Origin: Hyphomicrobium sp.
GTDB taxonomy: Bacteria; Pseudomonadota; Alphaproteobacteria; Rhizobiales; Hyphomicrobiaceae
DNA: 64,000 nucleotides
Reading direction: 5' to 3'
Assembly: GCF_003987855.1 (NCBI RefSeq)
Contig: NZ_RXIZ01000003.1
Location: forward strand, 18,233-82,232
Part shown: piece after piece, positions 6,551-22,907 of the stretch
Layout of the letters: every line of letters begins with the position of its first letter
How positions within the stretch are numbered: the first letter of the stretch is position 1
Translations under genes and position numbers: made by a program
The notes under the pieces: generated by a model
What the model saw: the letters and a program-made list of their open reading frames with translations, nothing else
Databases searched by the model: none
What the model was told of the DNA's origin: nothing

Positions 6551-9330
6551 GTTTCCTGCTTGCGCAAAAGGATCAAGCTGAGGAACGTGAGACAGGGAAT
6601 AAAAAGCGCTAAAATTCCTATATGCCGCGCGAGATCGAAAAAGCTGAGGCCCTTTGTAAAGGTTCCCACGCTGATCGGGACATAGTAGGTCATCGGAAAC
6701 AGCCGGCCGAGAATCGCGCCAAATCCCGTGATCGATGAGACCGGCGTCATCATTCCGGAGAACATCGTGGCCGGCAGCACCGTCATGATGGCGGTTCCAA
6801 ACAGGGCCGCGATCTGCGTTCGCGTGAAGGAAGAAATGACCATCCCGTACCCGGTGGTGGCGGTCACGTAGGCAAGCGATCCAAGCAATAGAGCCAAGAA
6901 GCTTCCCTTCAGCGGCACGTTGAAAATGAAGAGTGCCATCAGGAACAGAACCAGGAAGTTGATCATCGCCACGGCAACATACGGAATCTGCTTGCCGATA
7001 AGAAACTCGAGCCGCGTGACCGGCGTAACGTACAGGTTCGTGATCGAGCCAAGCTCTTTCTCGCGTACGATCGCAAGCGCCATCAAGATTGCCGGAATGA
7101 GTGCCAGCTGCATCGCGATAGTCGATGGCACCATTGCATAGATGCTGTCGAAATCTTGATTATAGCGGAAGCGAACCTCGATGTTCTCAGGGGCGTCGGC
7201 CCTCGACAGCCCGACGTGGCCCCGGATCGCCGGATCCGAGAGAAATTGCTGGTGCGCACCCTGAATATAGCCACGAATGGTCTCGGCTCGAAACGGCATC
7301 GCGCCATCCACCCAGACGGCCACCTCCGTCGGCCTTCCACGCCGGATATCGCGTCCAAAACCAGGCGGGATCTCCACCGTCGCCGAAACCGCTCCGCTCT
7401 TTAAGCGGTTCTGCAAGTCAGCCGCGTCCTTGAGCGGCGGCTGTTCGACGAAGTAGGCCGAGCCTCGCAATTCGCCGAGATACGCCCGGCTCTCGAAACT
7501 GTCGTCACGATCTAGGACGGCGAACGACAGGGAATTGACATCCGTCGTTATTCCGAACCCGAAGATGAGCATGAGAAAGGCAGTGCCCAGAAGCGCGAAG
7601 CTCATGCGGATTGGGTCGCGCCACAACTCAAGAGCCTCTCTGATCGTGTAGGCCATCATCCGCCGTGGGGAGAAACTTTCCAAAACCTCTTCCGCCGTCG
7701 CGTTTTCGGCCCGTGCCGACAGCGAGCCAATTTCAAACTGAGGCTGATGATCCTTGGGCCGCTTGGGAGCGGCTTCCTCCAAGTATGAAATGAACGCGTC
7801 TTCCAGCGTTGCCGCGTTGCGAGCTCGCATCAAGTTTTCTGGCGTATCGGTCGCAAGAACGCGTCCGGCGTTCATGAGCGCAATCCGGTCACAGCGCGCC
7901 GCCTCGTTCATGAAATGCGTCGACACAAAGATCGTCACGCCGTTCTTTCGCGACAGCTCGATCAACAACTCCCAAAATCCGTCTCTCGCAATCGGATCGA
8001 CGCCAGACGTTGGCTCATCGAGAATGAGAAGCTCTGGTTCGTGTACGACAGCAACGGCGAGCGACAGTCGCTGCCGGATGCCGAGCGGAAGATCCTCCGC
8101 GAGCTTGTCGATGTAATCAGCCAGTCCGAACCGGTCGACAAGGTAGGCAAGGCGATCCTTGATCGCGGCAGGCGCTAGGTTGAAAAGCCTCGCATGCAAA
8201 TCAAGATTTTGCCGCACCGTAAGCTCGCTGTAGAGAGAGAAAGCTTGCGACATGTAACCGACGCGCATTCGAGAGCGCATGTCGTTGGCGTCGATGGGAT
8301 CGCCAAAAAGTGTTGCACTCCCTTCATTCGACGGCAGAAGCCCCGTCAGCATTTTCATCGTGGTCGATTTCCCGCAGCCGTTTGAGCCCAGGAAGCCGAA
8401 AATCTCTCCGCGCCCGATATCGAAGCTCACGTGATCTACTGCGGTGAAATCGCCGAAGCGACGCGTGAGATCGCGGGCAACAATCACCGCGTCATCGGCA
8501 ATTTGGCTTCTTGGCGGTATCGTGAGGGTATGTCGACCTGACTTTATTTCAGTCGGCAGAAGCTCGATGAAAGCTTCTTCTATGGTGCCTTTCGCAGTCT
8601 TTTCCTTAAGGTCCGATGGCGAGCCCGTTGCCAGAACTTTGCCGGCGTTCATTGCCACCAGCCAATCAAAGCGTTCTGCTTCGTCCATGTAGGCCGTTGC
8701 GACCGCAACACTCATGCCCGGTCGACGCGAGCGCATTTCTCCGATGAGTTCCCAGAACTGGCGGCGAGAGAGGGGGTCCACGCCGGTAGTGGGTTCGTCA
8801 AGAAGCAGCAGATCCGGATCGTGCACGAGAGAGCAGCAAAGTCCGAGCTTCTGCCGCATGCCTCCAGACAATTTTTGGGCTGGACGGTCCGCGAATGGCT
8901 CCAGACCCGTGCTTTCAAGCAGGTTGGCGATGCGCGCCTCTCGCTCCAATCGCGCCTGGCCAAAGAGACGGGCAAAGAACTCGATGTTCTCTCGCACGCT
9001 GAGGTCCGGATAAAGATTCTTACCCAATCCCTGAGGCATATACGCAATGCGTGGGCAAATCCCTCTTCGCGCGACCGCGCTCGACATGTCGGCATCAAAG
9101 ACAGTAACGCGGCCGGATTGAATCTGCCGTGCGCCTGAGATCAGCGCCAGTAGCGTTGACTTGCCGACTCCGTCCGGGCCTATAAGTCCAATCATTTGGC
9201 CGGACGGCAATTCAATCGTTAGATTGTCGAGCGCGGCCACGGTGCCGTACCTGTGGGTGACGCCTTCCAGGCAAGCGACGGCTGGTCCGCCTGTCGCGTT
9301 CACGGCGTCCCCTTGAGGCGCTCCGGCCAA
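6547..9330 (-). CDS. rbbA: fused ABC transporter, ATPase-ATPase-permease (RbbA/YhiH-like)
   Basis: Two Walker A motifs (GPDGVGKST, GSNGCGKST) and two ABC signatures (LSGGMRQKL, LPLGIRQRL) are followed by a C-terminal ABC-2 membrane domain. An in-frame GTG at 9303 makes a GTGA overlap with the upstream stop and may be the true start. Confidence 0.9.
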   Translation of the reverse strand: MAGAPQGDAVNATGGPAVACLEGVTHRYGTVAALDNLTIELPSGQMIGLIGPDGVGKSTLLALISGARQIQSGRVTVFDADMSSAVARRGICPRIAYMPQGLGKNLYPDLSVRENIEFFARLFGQARLEREARIANLLESTGLEPFADRPAQKLSGGMRQKLGLCCSLVHDPDLLLLDEPTTGVDPLSRRQFWELIGEMRSRRPGMSVAVATAYMDEAERFDWLVAMNAGKVLATGSPSDLKEKTAKGTIEEAFIELLPTEIKSGRHTLTIPPRSQIADDAVIVARDLTRRFGDFTAVDHVSFDIGRGEIFGFLGSNGCGKSTTMKMLTGLLPSNEGSATLFGDPIDANDMRSRMRVGYMSQAFSLYSELTVRQNLDLHARLFNLAPAAIKDRLAYLVDRFGLADYIDKLAEDLPLGIRQRLSLAVAVVHEPELLILDEPTSGVDPIARDGFWELLIELSRKNGVTIFVSTHFMNEAARCDRIALMNAGRVLATDTPENLMRARNAATLEDAFISYLEEAAPKRPKDHQPQFEIGSLSARAENATAEEVLESFSPRRMMAYTIREALELWRDPIRMSFALLGTAFLMLIFGFGITTDVNSLSFAVLDRDDSFESRAYLGELRGSAYFVEQPPLKDAADLQNRLKSGAVSATVEIPPGFGRDIRRGRPTEVAVWVDGAMPFRAETIRGYIQGAHQQFLSDPAIRGHVGLSRADAPENIEVRFRYNQDFDSIYAMVPSTIAMQLALIPAILMALAIVREKELGSITNLYVTPVTRLEFLIGKQIPYVAVAMINFLVLFLMALFIFNVPLKGSFLALLLGSLAYVTATTGYGMVISSFTRTQIAALFGTAIMTVLPATMFSGMMTPVSSITGFGAILGRLFPMTYYVPISVGTFTKGLSFFDLARHIGILALFIPCLTFLSLILLRKQET

Positions 9331-10403
9331 TCCGCCTTCGAGTCCGTCAAAACATAAGCGTCCCCCGGCAAACCGCTGCGAACATAGTCAGCTTTCTCCA
9401 ACGATCGTGCTGGATCGATGCGAACCCGAACGCGGAACATGAGCTTGTCACGCTCGGTCTGTGTCTCGACCATTTTCGGCGTGAATTGCGCCTGGTCGGC
9501 GATAAAGGTCACTTTTGCCGGGATCGGGTGATCGGGATAAGCGTCGAGAACAATTCGTGCGTCGTTCCCAATTCGGACACGTCCGGCATCGAGCGTTGGA
9601 AGGTAGACATCCATGTAGACGTAACCGAAGTCGAGCATCGTGAAGACTTTACCGCCGGCTCCGAGTACCTCGCCGGTATTGGCGATGCGGTAAGCGATAC
9701 GTCCATCTCTCGGTGCGACCAACGTATTGTCGGCAATGTTCACGCGATAAAGGTCTGCATCATGATTGGCGGCCTCAAGCGCGTGCTCAGCCTCCGTAAC
9801 TCTCGCCTGAGCTGCAAGTTCGCCGGCCTTCGCCGAATTCAACGCCTGCTCGCGCTGATCGAAAACTTGTTTCGTGACCCAGCCGGACTTTAACAGCGCC
9901 TCCGCGCGAGCCATCTCCTGCTGGGCGAGAATGACCTGACTATGCTGCTGATTGAGAAGCGCATTTGCTTCGCTGATGATCTTCTTTGCTTGCTCAGCCT
10001 GCGCTTCGGATTTCTTCAGCGAGGTCTCGAGGTCGCGGGTATCCATCACCGCGAGGACCTGTCCAGCGGCGACCTTCGCTCCCTCATCGACGCGCAATTG
10101 GGCTATGCGGCCCGAAAATTTTGTCGCTATGTCTATAGGGTCGGCTTCTATGCGCCCATTGCCATATACGATCGCGGCAGGAAGGGGCGGAACGCGATGC
10201 AGCCACCAATAGCCGCCACCGACTGCGAGCGCCAGACCGGCGAGTGCGGCGACGAGCAGACGCCATCGAAAAAAGCGCCGCGAGTCTTTGTCGATCCCGA
10301 GATGAGATTGCGGCGATAAAGCTTTGCCTCCAGCCCGCTGATCGGCGGCGGGCATTTCCGTGAATTCGGCAGGCTTCTGCGTCGTCGGTTGCTCAACTTG
10401 CAT
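9300..10403 (-). CDS. yhiI: HlyD-family membrane fusion protein (YhiI-like)
   Basis: It has a single N-terminal TM (LLVAALAGLALAVGGGYWW), a central coiled-coil hairpin and flanking barrel-sandwich segments. It is the first gene of the yhiI-rbbA-yhhJ-type operon. Confidence 0.85.
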   Translation of the reverse strand: MQVEQPTTQKPAEFTEMPAADQRAGGKALSPQSHLGIDKDSRRFFRWRLLVAALAGLALAVGGGYWWLHRVPPLPAAIVYGNGRIEADPIDIATKFSGRIAQLRVDEGAKVAAGQVLAVMDTRDLETSLKKSEAQAEQAKKIISEANALLNQQHSQVILAQQEMARAEALLKSGWVTKQVFDQREQALNSAKAGELAAQARVTEAEHALEAANHDADLYRVNIADNTLVAPRDGRIAYRIANTGEVLGAGGKVFTMLDFGYVYMDVYLPTLDAGRVRIGNDARIVLDAYPDHPIPAKVTFIADQAQFTPKMVETQTERDKLMFRVRVRIDPARSLEKADYVRSGLPGDAYVLTDSKADWPERLKGTP

Positions 10404-12862: not shown

Positions 12863-13768
12863 CTAAACTGAAAACCGATCGAAATCGGCAGCGACAACTG
12901 CGCCCGGGAAGATCGCGCTGGCCTCTGCGAAAATTTCTCCCGCGCCATATCGGCCCGAGACATGCGTCAGCACCAGCCGTCGCACGCCATTCTGCGCGGC
13001 CAGCTGGGCGCCTTCCGCCGCAGTTAAATGGCCGTAATCGCGCGCGATCGCTGCATCGCGATCAAGAAATGTCGCTTCGATGATCAGCATGTCGGCGTCG
13101 CGTACGTGCTGCGCAATCCCCTGGGTCGACTCGATATCGCCGACCACCACCAGTTTACGCCCGCCTTCGGGGGGGCCCAGAACATCATCAGGCCTGATAC
13201 TCAAGCCCGATGGAAGCGTTGCCTCCATTCCGCTAGCAAGCCTGCTTCGGATGGGACCGTCGGGCACGCCGAGTTCTTGCAGACGCTCCGCCAGAAGATG
13301 GCGGCGTGGCGCGACCTCGAAAATATACGCTAAGCTGTCGCTGTCTCAGTGTGAGACCGGGAAGCAGCTGATCGCAAAACCGTCCACTTCGATCCGCTGC
13401 CCTCCCTCTAAGGGCTCTAGCTCCAGCGCGATCGGAGGACACTGGTTTGGCCAAAAGCCCGCGATGATGCCCGCGACGATCTCAAGCGTATGCCGGCTCC
13501 CGTTGATCATGATAGGCCCATGCGATTGCTGCAGGCCAAGTGTAGCGAGTAGCCCAGGCAAACCGAGAACATGGTCGAAGTGAGCATGCGTGAAAAGAAT
13601 GCGATGCGGGCGCCGTAAGCCGACACCTGCTCTTAGCATCTGCCGCTGGGTGCCCTCGCCGCAATCGACCAGCATCCGCGTGCCTCCGAACGAGACGAGG
13701 AGCCCAGGTTGATTGCGCTCCGTGGAGGGAATGCTGGCGGAGGTACCCAAGAACACGACTTCAAACAT
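12863..13768 (-). pseudogene. rnz: ribonuclease Z-like MBL-fold gene interrupted by one in-frame TGA (13346..13348)
   Basis: Track ORFs 13346..13768 (MFEVVFLGTSASIPS...THAHFDHVLGL...FPVSH*) and 12863..13267 are in the same frame. The 26 codons between them are open (DSDSLAYIFEVAPRRHLLAERLQELG). The total of 302 codons is the normal short RNase Z length. A good SD (GGAGACGATC-ATG) precedes the start. Confidence 0.8.
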
Positions 13769-15623: not shown

Positions 15624-16307
15624 TTAGAACGTGCCTGAGGAAACCTTTAGCGGCGCGTTATCTCCGCTCAGGAGCGCGCCAGGGAAGAAGGCGGGCACCT
15701 CTGCCTCTATCGTGGCTGCGGGCGGCGTCGAAGCGAGCGCCTTGTCGAGCCAATCGGTTTGAGCCGGCAGCGTGACGGAGAGGATCATCTCGATCTTGGT
15801 CCCGGGTTCGATCAAGTTCTTCTCGCCGCCTCCCGCACTGTAGAACAGGACCGTGCCGGTGAACGCGCTTCGACCGGATACCGAGATCGGCGCGAACGGC
15901 GTCTTCGGACGTTTCACGCGCGCCGCAACATCGTCTCGCCCGCCAAAATACTGGGCATCAGCAACATAATTGCTTTTGAATTTCTCTACTTGGCCGGTCT
16001 TGAGATTTTTCGCTTCCAGCTGAAGTGAGAGCACTGCGCCATCCCGTGCTCCGCTGTTGGTGATGGTGACTGGGACGGCTAGAACTTCATACGGACCGTA
16101 AGGGTCACGCGTATATTGAATGTTCTCGGAAACGTAGAGCTTGATCTCCGGCTGCCTGAGTGTCGTCTCCCATAGCGACACGGCCGATGCAGTGAGTGCC
16201 AGCCCGGAGATCATGACGGTCAGCAAATTCCCAGAGGAATGCTGAACGGCTTCGACCGCGATCTCCGATGCCTCGTTTGTGGCGTTTGGTGCGCTGGAAG
16301 ATTTCAT
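15624..16307 (-). CDS. hypothetical N-terminally anchored envelope protein
   Basis: The internal Met (MKSSSAPN...) is followed by one TM (LLTVMISGLALTASAVSLW) and a beta-rich domain. I recognise no family. The track ORF extends to 16430, but that extension looks non-coding. Confidence 0.55.
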   Translation of the reverse strand: MKSSSAPNATNEASEIAVEAVQHSSGNLLTVMISGLALTASAVSLWETTLRQPEIKLYVSENIQYTRDPYGPYEVLAVPVTITNSGARDGAVLSLQLEAKNLKTGQVEKFKSNYVADAQYFGGRDDVAARVKRPKTPFAPISVSGRSAFTGTVLFYSAGGGEKNLIEPGTKIEMILSVTLPAQTDWLDKALASTPPAATIEAEVPAFFPGALLSGDNAPLKVSSGTF

Positions 16308-16699
16308 CGACGTTCCCCCAATAAGGTCTGGTACAGACGTACAGACATTCGACGGCACTATCGTCGATTTAGACAGCCATGCGCTGTCCTGGCAGTACCG
16401 CGATTTGCCTCGGCAGAAATCGGAGACCATGGCGACGACTTGCGGTCAAGTACAGGGCAGCCATCGCACCTGTACTCCGTCTGCAGGGTCTGCCGACCGA
16501 GCGTTGTCCAGCGGGATGCTCTTCGCCCAATCGAATGGCCGGCGAGATGACAGTTTCACGTCGTGATTAGGGAGACAAATGCCGACTCGACGATGCCAGA
16601 GCGGCTAGAGCGGAATTCGCAGCGGCTACATACGATTGCACGTTAGCGGACTAATCGCTAGGCTGAACGTGTCTCGTCCGAACAGCGTAGGGGGAAACG

Positions 16700-17500
16700 A
16701 TGCCGGGGAAACAAGCGGCTGCAAAAGCTGTGCCGAATGCTTGGTCCGCGATGCTGTTCGCCCTGGCCGCTGCAATAGCCATCATCACAGCGCTATCATT
16801 CTTGCTTCCGTTCGGGTCGCCGGCCGCCGCGCTTCTGCTCGATCATCACAAGTACAGCGTTTTTCCCTACCCATTCACGATCCAAAACGCGACCTACCTC
16901 ATCTTCGCGGTCGGCATCGCCGATCTCTATGTGCGGTGGCGAACCGCGAGATACGAACGCGCATTTCTGCATCGCAAGTTTTTGCCGGAAGACGATAAGA
17001 CCGTCCTGCAAATCAGCGATCTCGGTGTCATCCGTCGCGACGTCTCCCGTCTTTATGACAGTCAGAACGGTTTTCTGCCCTATCTCATCGACATCTCGAT
17101 CACCCAGCTCCAGTCCAGCCGCTCGGTCGATCAGGCTGTCGCCATCCTGACGTCGAGCCTCGATCTGATGATCCACAAACTCGATCTCAGATATCAGACG
17201 GTTCGCTATATCGCTTACCTGATCCCGACGATCGGCTTTATTGGAACGGTTGTCGGCATCGCGGTGGCGCTCGAATACATCAATCCGAACAATCCGGATC
17301 TAGGCCAGGTCACTGGCGCTCTCGGCGTCGCCTTCTATACGACCCTGGTTGCCCTGATCGTCAGCGCAATCATCGTTTTTCTCCAGCATGCGGTTCAGAG
17401 GGAAGAAGAAAGCGCCCTCAACGAAGCCGGGCAATATTGCCTGAAGAACTTGATCAACCGGATCTACATTCCCGAGAACACGGGACACGTCGTGTCATGA
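16700..17500 (+). CDS. MotA/TolQ/ExbB-family proton-channel protein
   Basis: It has the four-TM layout with a cytoplasmic insert between TM2 and TM3. The C-terminal helices LIPTIGFIGTVVGIAVAL and ALGVAFYTTLVALIVSAII resemble the conserved channel helices of the family. An SD (AGGGGGA) sits 6 nt upstream of the ATG. Confidence 0.8.
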   Translation: MPGKQAAAKAVPNAWSAMLFALAAAIAIITALSFLLPFGSPAAALLLDHHKYSVFPYPFTIQNATYLIFAVGIADLYVRWRTARYERAFLHRKFLPEDDKTVLQISDLGVIRRDVSRLYDSQNGFLPYLIDISITQLQSSRSVDQAVAILTSSLDLMIHKLDLRYQTVRYIAYLIPTIGFIGTVVGIAVALEYINPNNPDLGQVTGALGVAFYTTLVALIVSAIIVFLQHAVQREEESALNEAGQYCLKNLINRIYIPENTGHVVS

Positions 17501-19380
17501 AGCGCCCGCGCCGGTCTGACCCTTCGGCGGGCAGCGAAATCGCGATGATGGCGGTCATCACGAAGGCCATGGGCGCCTTTCTCGTTCTGGTCGTGCTGCT
17601 CATGCCGTACTACGTCGTCAACATCAACATCGAGGGGCTCACCAAGAACGTCCAAGAGAAGATGGACAAGGTCCAAAGCCAAAGCAGCGAGACGCTCAAA
17701 AACGTCAAGGAGGCTTTGCAAAGGGCGGGCAAGGGCAGGCTGACCGACCGTGAGATCGACGAGCTTCAGGCACAGATCAAGCAGCTGGAGACCGATCTCG
17801 CCGAGGCGCGGACAGAGGTCGAACGCCTCAATTCCAAGGTTAAGCAGCAGGCGTCGCAGATCGCCCGCCTGCAAAAGGAAATCGAAGATCTCAAGCAGGA
17901 AATCGAGAGGCTCAAGAGAAATCAGGGCGATCCGCCTCTCGTCATTTCCCAGCTGACATGGAGCGGGTGCGTGGGAACGCGCTTTGTTCCCCTTATGCGC
18001 CTGACCGGCGCCGACGGCAGCACGTCCGCGCCAATAACGCTCACCTCCAATTTGCCATTTCAAACCGCGCAGTCCACCTGGAAGCTCGATGATGATGGCG
18101 GTGTTAGCCGCGCTTCTCTTCCGATTGGAGACGGACAGAAGACGACCGACGTCTTTTTTCTGAGATTGAATGGCGTGCCGGGCGATCACAGCACCTGTCA
18201 CGTCAAAGCCGAGGTTCATGTCAAAAACTTAGTCCATCCGCTCGGTACCTTCGACGTACAGGACGAGACAGTCGGATTCGTCGGCCGCGTGAAGACGACC
18301 GCAAATTCGATCGAACCCGGGCAAGTTGAAGGCGCGGAAGTCGAAAAAGATCTCAGCGCGCTGAAGGCGTCCGACTGCGAGGATTTAACCTGTTTCTCGA
18401 AAGACAAGCCCGGCAGCGAGACCGACGTCGACCGCGCCTTCGCGAGCTATCTCGTCAAGGCCAAGGTGCCGGAAGATGTAGCCAAAGAGCTGGCCTCAGC
18501 GGTGGCCGCCAATCGAATGACGCCAGCTGCAGCTTTCCGGTGGGGCCAGCTCGTCCTCGATCTGAAAGACGCTCCGACAGGCAACGCAGGTATGGAGTCC
18601 GGTGAATTCAGCGGACTGCTGGAAGAAAAGGGCGCGCCGCCGACCGTGCGCACTCAAGCGCAAGAACATGCGTATTCAGATGAGACGACGCTCAGTGCCG
18701 CCGTCAAGAAGATGAAGGATTGGCCGGATGCGCTCGATCCAGCGCTCTACCCCATAGCTGAAGGCCTCCGCAATCAAGGCATGCCCCCGGAGCTCGCCAA
18801 TAAATTCGCGCGTGCAATCGACAACAAGGTGGTGTCGGAGGACGAGGCGAAGATGTGGGCGGATCTGCTCAAGAAGGCGAACGTCAGCGGGCCTGTGAAA
18901 TACGACACGACGAAACTCGCGATCCTGCAAACTCCGAAGGTGAGCGGAGCAAGGGTCGGCGTCGCGGTGCCGCTCGCCGCCGCGTTGGCAAAAGCAGTTA
19001 ACGATGGGCAGACGACGCGTGAGCAGGTGTTGGGGCTCCTTGGCGCGGCGGTCCAATCCGCTCCCAGTAAGCCTCAATTCAACGCGGTTCAGCCGCCGCC
19101 ATCATCGCAACCGGCGGCTAACAGCAATGGACGCGTCGATGCGACCCTGGGCCCGCTGGTAGCGTCCGGAGCGATATCGGACAGCGCCGCGGCGGCCTGG
19201 ACAAAAGTCATTGCGCAAGGCCGGCAAGACAAGGAAATAAAATTGATGGCAGCCAAGAGCGCCATCGAAGGAAGCATGAAGCTGCCCGCTGCTCTGGTGG
19301 AGTTGCTCGCTCGGCAGTATTCCGAGGGAGCATTGACGATGGAGCAGATCAAGCAAGTCTACGGCGAGATGCAGAAATAG
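17497..19380 (+). CDS. bitopic membrane protein with coiled coil, beta-rich domain and C-terminal helical repeats (TolA/TonB-like architecture, no family recognised)
   Basis: The ATG at 17497 overlaps the upstream stop (ATGA). A short basic N-terminus leads to a TM (IAMMAVITKAMGAFLVLVVLLMPYYVV). A heptad-rich segment follows (EIDELQAQIKQLETDLAEARTEVERLNSKVKQQASQIARLQKEIEDLKQEIERLKRNQ). The track ORF start at 17437 lies inside the upstream gene. Confidence 0.75.
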   Translation: MKRPRRSDPSAGSEIAMMAVITKAMGAFLVLVVLLMPYYVVNINIEGLTKNVQEKMDKVQSQSSETLKNVKEALQRAGKGRLTDREIDELQAQIKQLETDLAEARTEVERLNSKVKQQASQIARLQKEIEDLKQEIERLKRNQGDPPLVISQLTWSGCVGTRFVPLMRLTGADGSTSAPITLTSNLPFQTAQSTWKLDDDGGVSRASLPIGDGQKTTDVFFLRLNGVPGDHSTCHVKAEVHVKNLVHPLGTFDVQDETVGFVGRVKTTANSIEPGQVEGAEVEKDLSALKASDCEDLTCFSKDKPGSETDVDRAFASYLVKAKVPEDVAKELASAVAANRMTPAAAFRWGQLVLDLKDAPTGNAGMESGEFSGLLEEKGAPPTVRTQAQEHAYSDETTLSAAVKKMKDWPDALDPALYPIAEGLRNQGMPPELANKFARAIDNKVVSEDEAKMWADLLKKANVSGPVKYDTTKLAILQTPKVSGARVGVAVPLAAALAKAVNDGQTTREQVLGLLGAAVQSAPSKPQFNAVQPPPSSQPAANSNGRVDATLGPLVASGAISDSAAAAWTKVIAQGRQDKEIKLMAAKSAIEGSMKLPAALVELLARQYSEGALTMEQIKQVYGEMQK

Positions 19381-19432
19381 CCTTGCGCATTTCATTCGCA
19401 GCGTGGAGACGTGGGGAGAGGAACTGACGAGC

Positions 19433-21448
19433 ATGACCAAACTGGTGCGCTGTAGGCAAGGTCACGTCTTCGACCTCGATCAAAACACCGCGTGCCCCCA
19501 GTGCGGCGAAATCTTCGCCACCGACGATGATACCGCCAGTAAGAAGGATGTACCGTTGCCGAAACCGGCGCCGGTGCCGTCGAACGGTCTTCTCCAACAC
19601 CTGCTGACATTCCCGCTCAATGCGGTGGTTGGCGCAGTTCTCGTCGTGCTCGCCTGTTCTGTTTGGTATTTGACATCGCGGAGCCCTTCTCCGGTCCCGT
19701 CACCGCCGGTTTCAGTCGCTGTGACCAAACCACCTGCGCCGTCAGAACAGGCGAAACCACCGGCCGACGAGCACCCGCCAGCGACGGCTCCGTCCGGTGT
19801 GAAAGAAACCAAGGATACAACCCCGCCGGCGCAAGCCGTCCCCACTCAGGCGCCGCCAGCACCCCAGCCCGGACCGGCTGCGAGCCCATCGCAACCTACT
19901 CTGAAGGCAGCCGCTGCCCCGCGAGCACCACAACCCACAGAGCAACCCTCAGTCGAGCCTGAGGCTCCCCAGGAAGGCACGCCGTCGCCACCTCCCGTAG
20001 AGCCGGCCTTTGACGACGCCGGCCTGGACCCTATGGCGGGCGCTCGATTTATGTCGGACTATTCTCCAGCGAAACAGGCGACGCACCGTGTCGTCCTCGA
20101 ACAGGCAGCCGAGGATTTCGCGATCGGGATGCGTGGCAAGACGGGAGTCGTCGCTGCGCTCGTCTGTCAAGATCCAAGTAAGGATCGCTTCGGCAGCGGC
20201 GCGATCACGGTTTGGATGTACGCCGATGGCAATTCCGCGGATCTCTTCAACCAACAACCTGCGCCGAAGATTAAGGTCGATGGTGTCGAGTTTACGCTCG
20301 ATCTTTCGCTGCGCATCGATGGTCAGGACTTCAAGCTCACGCACGAGCGTATCCTGACAGTCAAGAACGGGCACAGGCTCGTGGCAGATGTTGCCCCGAC
20401 GGAGCCGCTCTTTTCAGCGATGAAGGCTGCCAAGCGCGTGGAAATCCTCGGCGACAGCAAGGTCTACATGGTCGAGACCGGCGGCCGCTTCGATGAACTG
20501 GCAAAAATCGTCGACGGGTGCAAGCAGATCGCCGGGGTAAACACCGGCAATGCATCGGGAGCGCAATCCGGTGCCCCGCCTTCCGATGCGGCGATCGCCG
20601 CGCTCGAAGACAAATACGCTTTCACGCCGCTCGCGCGCGAACTGCTGGCGATCTCGTATGCGGACGCTGCCTACGCGCGCAAGGACTATGCGGCTGCCAA
20701 AGCCTGGCTGATGTCTGATGTGGCCAAGAGCAATCCGGCGGCAATTTTCTATATCGCGGAGATGGTAGCGGCGGGTAACGGGTTTCAGAAAAACGCCGCG
20801 AACGCGTTGGGTCTCTATGCCGAATCCGCTAACGGCGGATTTTACCCGGCGCAACTGCGGCTCGGGAAGATCTTTAGCAACGGCGACTATCCCGGTGTTC
20901 CGCGCGATCCGAGCAAAGCCAAGGCGTGGCTGATGATGGCGGCCAAGGAAGATCGCGGCGAGGCCAACCGTATCTTGTCGGAGATGGGCGTGCCGAGAGC
21001 CGAAATCAAGCCAACGCGGACGGACCTCGAGCTCGCCCTTGGCCGAAGTTATCAAGAAGCGTTCGGCATTGCGAACACGCTGATCTCGCAGGGTTCGGGC
21101 AGCGCATATTATTGGGCAGGCTCCTTCATCCACGAAGGCCAGGGGACGGACAAGAACCCGGACTACGGACGCAAACTGATCGCCAAGGGCGCCCGCACGT
21201 TCGATGCCCTTTGCATTGAGGCCGTCGCGGAATGGTCGTTCAACGGCGAATCAACACCCAGAAACGTCCCCGAGGCCGTGACGTTGGCCTACATCGCTCG
21301 TGAGAACGCGGTATTCGGCGATGATGCAGTGTTGATCGACAAACGCATCAGCATGTTCCTCGATAAGATCACTGATGAACAGTATGAAGACGTGCGCCAA
21401 TTGCTGAAGGGGATACGAGATATCCCGGCCCGGCAAGCGTCACGTTAG
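19433..21448 (+). CDS. Zn-knuckle / TM / Pro-rich / Sel1-repeat protein (long paralog)
   Basis: The N-terminus is MTKLVRCRQGHVFDLDQNTACPQCGE, followed by one TM and a spacer of about 110 aa rich in P/A/S. An unassigned domain comes next, then C-terminal Sel1-like repeats (AAKAWL..., ALGLYAESANGGFYPAQLRLGKIF, SKAKAWLMMAAKE). GGAGAGGA lies upstream of the ATG at 19433. Confidence 0.75.
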   Translation: MTKLVRCRQGHVFDLDQNTACPQCGEIFATDDDTASKKDVPLPKPAPVPSNGLLQHLLTFPLNAVVGAVLVVLACSVWYLTSRSPSPVPSPPVSVAVTKPPAPSEQAKPPADEHPPATAPSGVKETKDTTPPAQAVPTQAPPAPQPGPAASPSQPTLKAAAAPRAPQPTEQPSVEPEAPQEGTPSPPPVEPAFDDAGLDPMAGARFMSDYSPAKQATHRVVLEQAAEDFAIGMRGKTGVVAALVCQDPSKDRFGSGAITVWMYADGNSADLFNQQPAPKIKVDGVEFTLDLSLRIDGQDFKLTHERILTVKNGHRLVADVAPTEPLFSAMKAAKRVEILGDSKVYMVETGGRFDELAKIVDGCKQIAGVNTGNASGAQSGAPPSDAAIAALEDKYAFTPLARELLAISYADAAYARKDYAAAKAWLMSDVAKSNPAAIFYIAEMVAAGNGFQKNAANALGLYAESANGGFYPAQLRLGKIFSNGDYPGVPRDPSKAKAWLMMAAKEDRGEANRILSEMGVPRAEIKPTRTDLELALGRSYQEAFGIANTLISQGSGSAYYWAGSFIHEGQGTDKNPDYGRKLIAKGARTFDALCIEAVAEWSFNGESTPRNVPEAVTLAYIARENAVFGDDAVLIDKRISMFLDKITDEQYEDVRQLLKGIRDIPARQASR

Positions 21449-21479
21449 TCCTTGGTATGTGTGAGAGGTCGAGCACAAC

Positions 21480-22907
21480 ATGACAGGACGGCTCACGCGC
21501 TGCAGCCAGGGTCACGTTTTTCAAGCCGCGGGTCTCACCGCCTGCCCCGTCTGCGGAGAAGAACTCTCCTCTCAAGCGCCAATACCTTCGCCCGACCCTG
21601 CGCCTCCGCCTCCGGCTGTCTCTCCATCATTCATCTGGAGCGGCGTCGCGGCGATCACGGCCGGGGCCGTTCTGATCTTCGCTTTCTGGCCAATGTCATC
21701 CCCTCGGAAAGAAAGCGCTCAGGCAACGCAGCCTCCTCAGGAAGCGGTGAAATCTACACAGGACACGGCAATCACTTTGAACCCTCCCAAAGAGGTGGCG
21801 GCCGCCACACACGACGCGTTGCCGCCAGATGCACCGCCCAACGTCGCTGCCGAGGCGCCGCCGGTAGATACGTCGGGTAAAGTCTCGCCACCGTCGTCGG
21901 TGCAACCTCCAGTCAAGCCCTCTGCACAGGCATCGGCACCTGCCGCGCCGGTGACCACACCGTCGCCACCCGTTCTGGAAGTCACCCCGCAGCCTCCTAA
22001 AAGTCCTGTTGTTGCTCCCGCCAATAGGCTGCTCCCCAACATCGATTATCCCGGCGAAGCGGTCGCGAAGCTGCAAAACACACTTCACCTCAGCGATTTT
22101 CTGATCGACATGCTGGGTGAGTTTGCGGCCGCCGATGCGATGAGCACCTCACCGACACCCGCCGCGGTCGCCGTCCTCACCAAGCTCGCCGATAAAGGGA
22201 TCGGCGTGGCCAAGTTCGATCTGGCGAACGTCTATTTTGCTGGACCCGTTGTCGGAAAGGATGATGGACAGGCGTTGATGTACTTACGTCAAGCGGCCGA
22301 TATGGGTGTGGGACCGGCTCGCATGAAGCTCGCGCAAATATTGGAGGAAGGTCAGCTCGTCCTGCAAGATCATCGCACGGCGCGCGAACTCGTGACGCTC
22401 GCGGCGCGCGAGGGCACCGGAGGGGCGAGCACAGTGGCCCAACAGATGGACGTCGATATTCAATCGCTTGGGCCTACGGGACCAGAGCTCACCGACATGG
22501 CGCTTCAGGGCAATGAGAAAGCTGTCGCGATCGCAAACGAATTCATCGCCAATCATCTCGCATCAGGCTATCTGGCCCTCGCGTGGTATGGCGCGAAATA
22601 CGGCAAGGACGCCGATCTCCGGCGCAAGGTTCCGGAGTTTGCGCGCAAGGCCGCCTCGCTCGGGATCTCGAACGGAATGAACATTCTGGCTAACCTCTAT
22701 CGCGACGATGTCCTCGTCGATAAGAACACCACGGAAGCCTATCTCTGGATCACGCTGGCCCATCGCTTTTGTGGTGAGCCCGACTGGTGCGCGGCGGAAG
22801 CAAAGTTGATTGCGAAGCTCGGCAAGACTGTCGATACAGCTCAGGTCGAAGCTCTGCGCGCCGCAATATCGAACGTCGTTTCGCCCCCCTCGGATGAAAC
22901 CAGATAG
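21480..22907 (+). CDS. Zn-knuckle / TM / Pro-rich / Sel1-repeat protein (short paralog)
   Basis: The N-terminus MTGRLTRCSQGHVFQAAGLTACPVCGE has the same spacing as the preceding gene. It is followed by one TM, a Pro-rich spacer and Sel1-like repeats (GIGVAKFDLANVYFAG, GQALMYLRQAADMGVGPARMKLAQIL, EAYLWITLA). Confidence 0.75.
   Translation: MTGRLTRCSQGHVFQAAGLTACPVCGEELSSQAPIPSPDPAPPPPAVSPSFIWSGVAAITAGAVLIFAFWPMSSPRKESAQATQPPQEAVKSTQDTAITLNPPKEVAAATHDALPPDAPPNVAAEAPPVDTSGKVSPPSSVQPPVKPSAQASAPAAPVTTPSPPVLEVTPQPPKSPVVAPANRLLPNIDYPGEAVAKLQNTLHLSDFLIDMLGEFAAADAMSTSPTPAAVAVLTKLADKGIGVAKFDLANVYFAGPVVGKDDGQALMYLRQAADMGVGPARMKLAQILEEGQLVLQDHRTARELVTLAAREGTGGASTVAQQMDVDIQSLGPTGPELTDMALQGNEKAVAIANEFIANHLASGYLALAWYGAKYGKDADLRRKVPEFARKAASLGISNGMNILANLYRDDVLVDKNTTEAYLWITLAHRFCGEPDWCAAEAKLIAKLGKTVDTAQVEALRAAISNVVSPPSDETR

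Follow-up and report, generated by a model that had tools for sequence, protein, structure and literature searches.

An operon of Hyphomicrobium sp. with a MotA/TolQ/ExbB-family gene: a candidate member of a widespread three-component envelope machine

Introduction

To our knowledge, the mechanistic models of MotAB, PomAB, ExbBD, TolQR and AglRQS all rest on the protonation and deprotonation of one aspartate in the helix of the axle (B) subunit, and GldM is the sole characterized axle with a basic residue. The arginine in the GldM axle helix reportedly pairs with an acidic residue of GldL, a finding attributed to Hennell James et al. in 2021. ExbB and TolQ have three transmembrane (TM) helices, and MotX is a small secreted protein without a zinc ribbon or a TM anchor. 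A conserved mid-membrane aspartate has been described for MotB, TolR and AglQ/S, and the periplasmic dimer of GldM has been described as a shaft that spans the periplasm (PMC9389320). The transducers of the Agl-Glt machinery of Myxococcus xanthus start in the cytoplasm with a zinc ribbon (GltJ) or FHA domains (GltG), cross the membrane through a TM helix and end in a C-terminal binding domain that a long, disordered linker connects to the helix in the periplasm; AglR5QS, a TolQR-like motor, is predicted to bind GltG through the TM helix and the membrane-adjacent FHA domain (PMC11761067). A 2025 survey groups the non-flagellar relatives of MotAB as heterogeneous "generic ion transporters" (PMC12505986). 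Here we analyze a four-gene operon (g1 to g4) on the + strand at positions 16700-22907 of a 64,000-nt stretch of DNA from Hyphomicrobium sp. (contig NZ_RXIZ01000003.1). The whole stretch is referred to as the window, and all coordinates are those of the window unless another locus is named.

The operon is one copy of a three-part module that encodes, in this order, a MotA/TolQ/ExbB-family channel protein (A), a bitopic protein in which a TM helix is combined with a coiled coil (B), and one to three proteins that start with a CHCC zinc ribbon. With confidence only slightly better than even, we regard it as encoding one of a widespread group of envelope machines with three components, of the 5:2 MotA/ExbB/TolQ type. 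No published description of this combination of A, B and zinc-ribbon genes was found in the open-access literature. Two of the three parts lack a Pfam family, and the triad is apparently an unstudied envelope machine. What sets it apart is a new set of partners, to which the copy in the window adds a clade-specific loss of the canonical aspartate.

Organization and conservation of the module

The preliminary description of this DNA reported four tightly packed genes on one strand, and this arrangement was confirmed.

16700..17500, + strand: g1, A subunit, MotA/TolQ/ExbB-family channel protein of 266 amino acids
17497..19380, + strand: g2, B-type (axle) subunit of 627 amino acids, whose start overlaps the g1 stop
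19433..21448, + strand: g3, bitopic protein of 671 amino acids counted from its ATG, with zinc ribbon, TM helix, proline-rich spacer, domain of unknown fold and Sel1 region
21480..22907, + strand: g4, paralog of g3, 475 amino acids, with zinc ribbon, TM helix, proline-rich spacer and Sel1 region and no middle domain

The g1/g2 junction is an ATGA overlap (17497-17500), and gaps of 52 and 31 nt separate g2 from g3 and g3 from g4, respectively. Public gene calls for identical contigs give the same lengths for all four genes. An alternative upstream start of g3, a GTG at 19403, is possible.

Homologs of g1 were confirmed at a minimum of 551 loci in GTDB contigs (one genome per species). Homologs with 50-77% identity to g1 occur in Alpha-, Beta-, Gamma- and Deltaproteobacteria, Planctomycetota, Binataceae, Acidobacteriota, Bdellovibrionales, Gemmatimonadota and Balneolales. 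When the A-family profile was searched against 1.84 billion representatives, 209 clusters (50% identity) were matched at E <= 1e-30 and just 3395 at E <= 1e-3; by this measure, the A family is a distinct and compact branch of its superfamily. Dozens of unrelated genomes share the gene order, which is not a chance arrangement. In 74 of 85 loci, a hidden Markov model of g2 residues 1-45 matched the gene that directly follows the A gene. Of the 65 loci with enough sequence, 56 have a zinc-ribbon gene in the same orientation no more than 6.5 kb downstream of A, and two more have one upstream of A. Only g1 to g4 are conserved between loci, where their order is kept, and the flanking genes differ; the conserved synteny that the preliminary description had left to be checked in related genomes is therefore present.

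Purine runs resembling Shine-Dalgarno sequences precede g1 (GGGGGA), g3 (GGGGAGAGGA) and g4 (GAGAGG). In front of g2 there is just a weak GGGA, and the translation of this gene is probably coupled to that of g1. The 392-bp upstream region described earlier depends on the gene call: the intergenic distance is 392 nt when the divergent gene starts at 16307, as the public callers place it, and 269 nt when it starts at 16430.

16308..16699, no strand: divergent intergenic region, presumed promoter region, 392 nt long when the divergent gene starts at 16307

A sigma-70 promoter scan upstream of the operon returned 0 sites, a result that is uninformative for an alphaproteobacterium.

Relation to described systems

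The operon has the same Pfam A family as TolQR-TolA and ExbBD-TonB, and the B gene is likewise placed directly after the A gene. As in TolR and ExbD, B starts with a short basic N-terminus and a single TM helix, with an invariant aspartate and an EIN...LDV-like motif in most of the family, and g3 and g4 are, like TonB and TolA, further bitopic proteins with a long proline-rich periplasmic spacer. There are also differences. Four TM helices are present in g1, B consists of a long coiled coil and domains of unknown fold in place of the small ExbD/TolR domain, the aspartate is replaced in the clade of the window, and no receptor, TolB or Pal genes are linked. Instead of a TonB_C or TolA_III domain, g3 and g4 end in a Sel1 solenoid, and they start with a zinc ribbon.

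The zinc ribbon of the family is joined in some proteins to a TM helix, a spacer and a solenoid and in others to an FHA domain, an arrangement like that of Agl-Glt, and some loci have two tandem B paralogs, recalling AglQ and AglS. Unlike the Agl-Glt proteins, g3 and g4 had no detectable GYF domain or domain resembling the TonB C-terminal domain, and no other glt genes are present. Homology of the zinc ribbon to GltJ was not detected, PDB entry 7zok being absent from the 60 profile matches listed, and a weak NCBIfam GltJ match (0.0079) covers the TM helix and proline-rich region only. The likeness to Agl-Glt appears to be one of design.

As in GldLM and PorLM, the B-type subunit is large; the periplasmic dimer of GldM is thought to be a shaft to distal partners (PMC9389320). 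Unlike GldL, however, g1 is a clear PF01618 protein, and g2 has no sequence or fold match to GldM. The module resembles ZorAB, a non-flagellar, MotAB-like 5:2 complex, in the ZorA matches of g1 and the weak ZorB1 match of g2, and differs from it in lacking the long ZorA tail, the peptidoglycan-binding domain of ZorB and effectors of the ZorC/D/E type. The association of a Sel1-repeat periplasmic protein with a MotA-family complex recalls PomAB-MotX of Vibrio, an analogy drawn in the preliminary description. It comes down to generic Sel1 similarity: the NCBIfam MotX match of g4 (1.3e-7) is partial, covers a single repeat pair and scores 31.3 bits against a cut-off of 330, and no flagellar genes adjoin the operon. 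As the preliminary description had supposed, the cluster matched no system that already has a name.

The channel subunit

By Pfam and predicted fold, g1 is a member of the MotA/TolQ/ExbB family. It matched PF01618 (MotA_ExbB) with 53 bits (cut-off 22.9, E = 3.8e-14) and contains four hydrophobic helices (residues ~14-35, 61-80, 168-192 and 201-225) and a small cytoplasmic domain. In the AlphaFold2 model (pLDDT 88.5, from an alignment of 22 homologs), the protein combines a MotA-like four-helix topology with a cytoplasmic part of TolQ/ExbB size. The top Foldseek matches of the model in the PDB were ExbB (5sv0) and TolQ (9avi, 8vlw and 8odt), followed by MotA, PomA and ZorA (8vvn), with probability 1.0, TM-scores of 0.5-0.63 and E-values of merely ~2e-3. 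Scores against the NCBIfam equivalogs for TolQ, PomA, MotA, MotP, ExbB and ZorA were all far below the cut-offs, the best being 21.8 bits for TolQ against a cut-off of 221.

The channel helices noted in the preliminary description were recovered in the translation and in the alignment of homologs.

17219..17356, + strand: g1 channel helices TM3 LIPTIGFIGTVVGI and TM4 GVAFYTTLVAL

Five residues of TM3 (P176, T177, G179, G182 and T183) and two of TM4 (T214 and T215) are invariant in 22 diverse homologs, and g1 thus carries the P-x-x-G-x-x-G-T motif and a threonine-bearing last helix. The cytoplasmic face is also strongly conserved in these homologs, with invariant stretches that include LPED and the C-terminal YCLKNLINRLY.

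A dedicated partner subunit

The preliminary description had called the channel an orphan, had stated that none of the downstream proteins resembles MotB, TolR or ExbD, and had proposed that the coiled-coil protein replaces a B- or TolA-type subunit. These three points were not sustained by the comparison of loci. A dedicated partner gene follows the A gene at most loci, and the first 40 residues of g2 are the conserved part of this partner family, which elsewhere contains a TolR-like EIN...LDV helix. Its position, translational coupling and topology, the invariant aspartate of the wider family and the extreme conservation of the helix alone are the reasons why g2 is best read as the B (axle) subunit itself, with its aspartate relocated or replaced, rather than as a TolA-like substitute; a TonB- or TolA-like role fits g3 and g4 better.

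17497..17613, + strand: g2 basic cytoplasmic tail (residues 1-14) and TM helix (residues 15-39), near-invariant (family alignment and translation)
17614..17925, + strand: g2 periplasmic coiled-coil stalk with conserved GKGRLTD hinge (AlphaFold2 model, coiled-coil family matches and alignment)
17938..18321, + strand: g2 beta-sandwich, residues 148-275, with conserved Cys residues (AlphaFold2 model and alignment)
18331..19374, + strand: g2 C-terminal array of helical hairpins, residues 279-626, variable between relatives (AlphaFold2 model and alignment)

The protein is 100% identical to an NCBI hypothetical protein from Hyphomicrobium sp., and its own family is small (20 clusters). In the family alignment, residues 1-40 are almost invariant and the remainder is ~25% identical. 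Such conservation of the helix alone would be expected of a helix enclosed by a ring of A subunits. The N-terminus of B in most phyla is near-invariant (REINIFNLSMLDVISGAMGAF) and contains a TolR-like TM helix with an invariant aspartate; these proteins start with MKPRNREINIFNLSMLDVISGAMGAFLIIMIVL.PYY and have a basic tail, an EIN motif and the TM helix with the aspartate, which is invariant across a 21-sequence alignment (A4). In hhalign, REINIF..LDV of the B helix was paired with SEINIV-LLDV of a hand-typed E. coli TolR sequence, though without significance (E = 0.16). An N-in/C-out topology, with the bulk of g2 in the periplasm, is suggested by the basic tail (MKRPRRSD), by the presence of one hydrophobic helix (residues 15-39) and by conserved Cys residues toward the C-terminus.

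The AlphaFold2 model of g2 (pLDDT 67.5) consists of a helix at residues 12-78, a hinge, a helix at residues 84-143, the beta-sandwich and the hairpins, with the TM helix continuing into ~130 residues of helix. Foldseek returned no match of the model in the PDB at E <= 1e-3, and a sequence search of the PDB gave coiled-coil noise only. Weak likenesses of the beta-sandwich to PLAT, DUF4425 and MmpS-like folds were not trusted. The hairpin array (residues 279-626) had no family or fold match; its sequence resembles five to six copies of a helical-hairpin unit of ~40 amino acids, for example VPEDVAKELASAVAANRMTPAAAFRW, MPPELANKFARAIDNKVVSEDEAKMW and LPAALVELLARQYSEGALTMEQIKQVY. The profile searches placed g2 in none of the ExbD, TolR, MotB, TonB and TolA families at significance, in agreement with the preliminary description, and a regular-expression scan of all loci found no canonical ExbD/TolR gene. 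None of the three results that the preliminary description had named as refuting was therefore obtained, and its central idea stands with the corrections given above.

Zinc-ribbon proteins

The third component is represented in the operon by g3 and g4, which had been described as paralogous Sel1 proteins with a Zn knuckle, a TM helix and a proline-rich region; both the paralogy and the bitopic architecture were borne out. The two proteins are 26% identical over 204 amino acids and 63% identical over the zinc ribbon, both score above the Pfam Sel1 threshold, and proline makes up 22-26% of the 100 residues after the TM helix.

19433..19513, + strand: g3 cytoplasmic CHCC zinc ribbon MTKLVRCRQGHVFDLDQNTACPQCGEI (family motif RC..GH.FD......CP.CG, alignment A3)
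19589..19672, + strand: g3 TM helix, residues 53-80
~19673-20017, + strand: g3 proline-rich spacer, after the TM helix
~20018-20587, + strand: g3 domain of unknown fold, residues ~196-385, ~190 amino acids, between the proline-rich spacer and the Sel1 region
~20588-21445, + strand: g3 Sel1 region (Sel1 match at residues 473-505; phrog_8741 match at residues 401-624)
21480..21560, + strand: g4 cytoplasmic CHCC zinc ribbon MTGRLTRCSQGHVFQAAGLTACPVCGE (family motif and paralogy to g3)
21630..21689, + strand: g4 TM helix, residues 51-70
~21690-22049, + strand: g4 proline-rich spacer, after the TM helix
~22059-22904, + strand: g4 Sel1 region (Sel1 match at residues 244-276)

The ~190-residue middle domain of g3 had no Pfam, NCBIfam or PADLOC match and is without a counterpart in g4. 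Sel1 repeats, and no TonB_C or TolA_III domain, were detected in the two proteins; PADLOC matched neither of them, and the PHROGs search returned Sel1 and coiled-coil similarity only. Weak NCBIfam matches of g4 were to ExoR and AlgK. Among the matches listed for the zinc-ribbon profile against the PDB, there were only generic CPxCG knuckles.

The zinc-ribbon family has the consensus ..L.RC..GH.FD......CP.CG, and in 49 of 60 distinct proteins a TM helix lies at a distance of 45-85 residues from the N-terminus. The domains detected on the 60 proteins were Sel1 (27), FHA (10), TPR (6) and PDZ (2). The fusions to FHA have no TM helix, and their hosts are Deltaproteobacteria, Binataceae, Chromatiaceae and Burkholderiales; genes for a membrane protein with vWA and FHA domains, a PP2C phosphatase and a Ser/Thr kinase follow them. 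The alternative fusions, zinc ribbon-TM-Sel1/TPR on the one hand and zinc ribbon-FHA with kinase and phosphatase genes on the other, suggest a link between ion-driven motors and Ser/Thr phosphosignaling.

Proposed mechanism

The solved 5:2 complexes provide the analogy for a working model, in which the stoichiometry, the rotation, the docking of the zinc ribbon on A, the transduction of force and the biological target are all taken as likely features and not as observations. The g1 protein would form an ion-conducting pentamer, the A ring, and the N-terminal helices of g2 would lie as a dimer inside it. The periplasmic part of g2 would be a parallel, dimeric coiled-coil stalk bearing the beta-sandwich and a head of helical repeats, and it would rise from the two axle helices in the manner of the periplasmic dimer of GldM (PMC9389320). 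Ion flow through the A/B complex would turn A relative to B, and the turning would pull or move whatever the Sel1 domains hold.

In their design, g3 and g4 look like transducers in the style of TonB, TolA, GltG and GltJ. The zinc ribbon probably docks on the highly conserved cytoplasmic face of g1, where the C-terminal YCLKNLINRLY helix is a candidate site, the TM helix would pack outside the A ring as the helices of TonB and TolA do, the proline-rich spacer could span the periplasm, and the Sel1 solenoid would bind a periplasmic, peptidoglycan or outer-membrane target. The PDB entries matched by the g1 model include, by their titles, TonB bound to ExbB and TolA with TolQR.

A proposed altered coupling site in one clade of Hyphomicrobiales

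The B partners fall into two groups at positions 14, 19 and 23 (g2 numbering): N/S, D and G in 52 proteins and E/D, A and K in 28, with 0 intermediates. The helix of the 52 contains the invariant aspartate (..EINIFNLSMLDV..). The 28 (hereafter the A/K type) have alanine at the position of the aspartate, Glu or Asp at i-5 and Lys at i+4, and g2 is one of them.

17536-17538, + strand: g2 codon E14
17551-17553, + strand: g2 codon A19, the position of the canonical aspartate
17563-17565, + strand: g2 codon K23

All named hosts of the A/K type but one are Hyphomicrobiales (Hyphomicrobium, Nitrobacter, Xanthobacter, Rhodoblastus, Bosea, Bradyrhizobium, Methylobacterium, Chelatococcus and Methyloceanibacter). 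The exception, L015 (QFQR01000013.1), comes from a metagenome-assembled genome (MAG) labeled Leifsonia xyli; its locus is almost identical to Bosea loci, and the contig is therefore probably mis-binned. A neighbor-joining tree of A subunits groups the A/K loci in a single clade, which comprises an E-A-K and a D-A-K subclade. Two loci, L017 and L056, lie ~17 kb apart on contig LSIB01000180.1 of one Rhizobiales genome and encode one E-A-K and one D-A-K system, indicating that the clade without the aspartate has duplicated and diverged within genomes.

The A subunits also differ between the two groups. Twenty-four sequences of the A/K clade were compared with 45 from other clades (as counted at positions 213 and 221).

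g1 position 66, TM2: Tyr in the A/K clade; mostly His in others
g1 position 70, TM2: Ala in the A/K clade; mostly Phe in others
g1 position 192, periplasmic end of TM3: Glu or His in the A/K clade; Ala, Gly, Arg or Ser in others
g1 position 213, directly before T214/T215 in TM4: Tyr in 24/24 of the A/K clade; Asn 31, Asp 9 and Tyr 5 in others
g1 position 221, TM4: Val, Ala or Leu in the A/K clade; Glu in 28/45 of others

The perfect covariation of A and B is of limited worth because the A/K loci are a single branch in the A tree. The channel-motif residues of A are still invariant in the clade, and E14 and K23 of B are under extreme purifying selection. The coupling site thus looks like one that has been remodeled and kept under selection rather than one in decay. 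Lys23 and/or Glu14 may be titratable, or the amine of the lysine may act as a tethered cation. D75 and E192 of g1, the candidates for an acidic partner of Lys23, are not invariant.

Several results weigh against the interpretation of the operon as an ion-driven machine with g2 as its axle. The switch from aspartate to alanine and lysine, as judged from the tree, happened once, which makes it a single evolutionary event and not replicated evidence. Ion coupling may have been lost in the clade of g2, since g2 is without the aspartate that every characterized MotB, ExbD, TolR, AglQ and AglS needs (PMC9389320). The relationship of the B helix to ExbD, TolR and MotB, as far as sequence comparison goes, is without statistical significance: hhalign gave E = 0.16 with E. 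coli TolR and E = 0.28 with ExbD (both sequences hand-typed), and a profile of the Asp-type helix found nothing among PDB sequences. OmpA, ExbD and other peptidoglycan-binding domains were absent from the Pfam matches of the 74 B partners, which were to coiled-coil families only. The PADLOC ZorB1 model matched full-length g2 weakly (9e-4), a match possibly driven by the coiled coil, and Pfam and PADLOC scans of isolated B N-termini gave a single match, to ZorB1 at 0.039.

The loss of coupling would leave a static scaffold or gated pore in the A/K clade that organizes the Sel1 proteins, for example in polar localization or envelope signaling, without ion-driven movement. The alanine in 28 of 28 clade partners is consistent with such a role; the lysine lies one helical turn from it and could stand in for a cation that is bound permanently, and Sel1 proteins are often periplasmic regulators, as the weak similarity of g4 to ExoR and AlgK recalls. 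We consider a static role improbable, however, given that A keeps its channel threonines and its P-x-x-G-x-x-G-T motif invariant in the clade, that purifying selection on the whole B helix is extreme, and that the substitutions in A are coordinated and lie beside the channel, a pattern that suggests a changed but working site. On account of this selection pattern, we tentatively favor the retention of a working motor with altered coupling chemistry over the loss of function.

The strongest form of this proposal, which we put forward tentatively and with some doubt, is that the A/K clade would be the first 5:2 motor of the MotA/ExbB family without the axle aspartate, a "charge-inverted" proton motor in which K23 is titratable, perhaps together with the Glu/Asp at residue 14. 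The triad would then be a new and broadly spread envelope force transducer or signaling machine, linked by phylum either to Sel1/TPR or to FHA, PP2C and Ser/Thr kinases. With alanine for aspartate, lysine one turn above and an acid 1.5 turns below, the A/K lineage is a natural test of whether the carboxylate is necessary and whether an amine can act as ion carrier. Culturable hosts (Xanthobacter autotrophicus, Bosea, Methylobacterium organophilum, Chelatococcus and Methyloceanibacter) make genetics feasible.

Alternative functions of the module

A Zorya-like anti-phage or conflict system is a further, and in our judgment unlikely, explanation. The A/B complex would sense perturbation of the envelope, and the zinc-ribbon proteins (elsewhere the zinc ribbon-FHA proteins with the kinase, phosphatase and vWA protein) would relay or execute the response. 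The best PADLOC matches of g1 were ZorA models (1e-7), alongside the weak ZorB1 match of g2, but the ZorA matches span the shared TM3-TM4 core only, and the NCBIfam score is 13.8 bits against a cut-off of 700. With 266 amino acids, g1 has no ZorA-type tail, and B has no peptidoglycan-binding domain. The distribution of the module is patchy and its genomic neighborhoods differ, with one locus beside TIR-nSTAND and trypsin-TPR-S genes, another beside an integrase, and trypsin-like proteases recurring among the neighbors. In the window, however, the neighbors are of the housekeeping type (Na/H exchanger, AhpC, patatin and sulfatase), there is no nuclease or helicase effector, and no genes of the ZorC/D/E/F/G type are nearby. 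The associated Ser/Thr kinases match the kinase-based PD-T4-6 defense models, yet the top 25 of the 49 PADLOC families matched by 119 flanking open reading frames (ORFs) were kinase models, all from the same seven ORFs.

Least likely of all is a divergent Ton- or Tol-type energizer of uptake or outer-membrane tethering, in which g3 and g4 would replace TonB or TolA on receptors or lipoproteins: the closest solved folds to g1 are ExbB and TolQ, g3 and g4 share the TM helix and proline-rich spacer of TonB, and hhalign lines the B helix up with SEINIV..LLDV of TolR (without significance), but no TonB_C, TolA_III or ExbD periplasmic fold was detected, no TonB-dependent receptor gene and no tolB or pal adjoins the operon, g1 has a MotA-like topology of four helices against the three of ExbB and TolQ with NCBIfam TolQ and ExbB scores far under the cut-offs, and the genes that accompany the module in other phyla encode FHA proteins, kinases and phosphatases and not transporters. 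A three-component machine with its own B subunit and zinc-ribbon transducers is the interpretation that we prefer.

Genomic context and other loci

The neighbors of the operon in the window include a Na/H exchanger, metallo-beta-lactamase (MBL)-fold proteins, an alkyl sulfatase, AhpC, a patatin and a DUF302 protein. The divergent upstream gene (15624-16307) was considered as a part of the system and rejected, as it has no family match and is not conserved beside the module. Two antisense ORFs on the - strand (16796-17176 and 17464-18219) appeared conserved in BLAST comparisons with other loci, yet they are shadow ORFs of g1 and g2 in GC-rich DNA. A small MBL-fold protein encoded a few kb upstream (~13346-13768, - strand; L085 5850-6272) has a precomputed Pfam match to Anti-Pycsar Apyc1 and is probably a generic MBL hydrolase.

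Families that recur among the 119 flanking ORFs are FHA (9), protein kinase (7), TPR/Sel1 (6), PP2C (5) and trypsin-like protease (4). A megablast search of the operon against plasmids gave no match, and tblastn with g1 found a single distant copy, on a megaplasmid of Rhizobium leguminosarum (pRlBT01d, NZ_CP125637.1; L087 5695-13862), in an unannotated record. This copy is of the Asp type, with 41% identity to g1; a PP2C gene lies directly upstream, and an ORF of 180 amino acids and then a Gly/Asp/Ser-rich ORF of 1610 amino acids lie downstream.

In eight loci from Binataceae and deltaproteobacterial MAGs (L031, L036, L038, L043, L044, L064, L067 and L068, at ~8750-10000 in each), two B paralogs of ~195 amino acids each are encoded in tandem after the A gene, and their TM helices are almost identical (..NIFNMSVLDLLTGALGAFCF..). 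Three further genes come next, one for a zinc ribbon-FHA protein, one for a PP2C phosphatase and one for a Ser/Thr kinase that bears a double zinc ribbon. In loci of the Desulfobacterales and Chromatiaceae type (L082 9560-12018, L060 9581-14171 and L079 3823-7567), the module runs on into three more genes, which encode a zinc ribbon-FHA protein, a membrane protein whose vWA domain is periplasmic and whose FHA domain is cytoplasmic, and a PP2C protein with a TM helix. The motor at loci of this kind seems to be wired to Thr-phosphorylation signaling. In a metagenomic relative (L001 1-6604), the module adjoins genes for a TIR-nSTAND1-FGE-sulfatase protein and a trypsin-TPR-S protein, which belong to conflict-system families, and hydrogenase maturation (hyp) genes lie on its other side.

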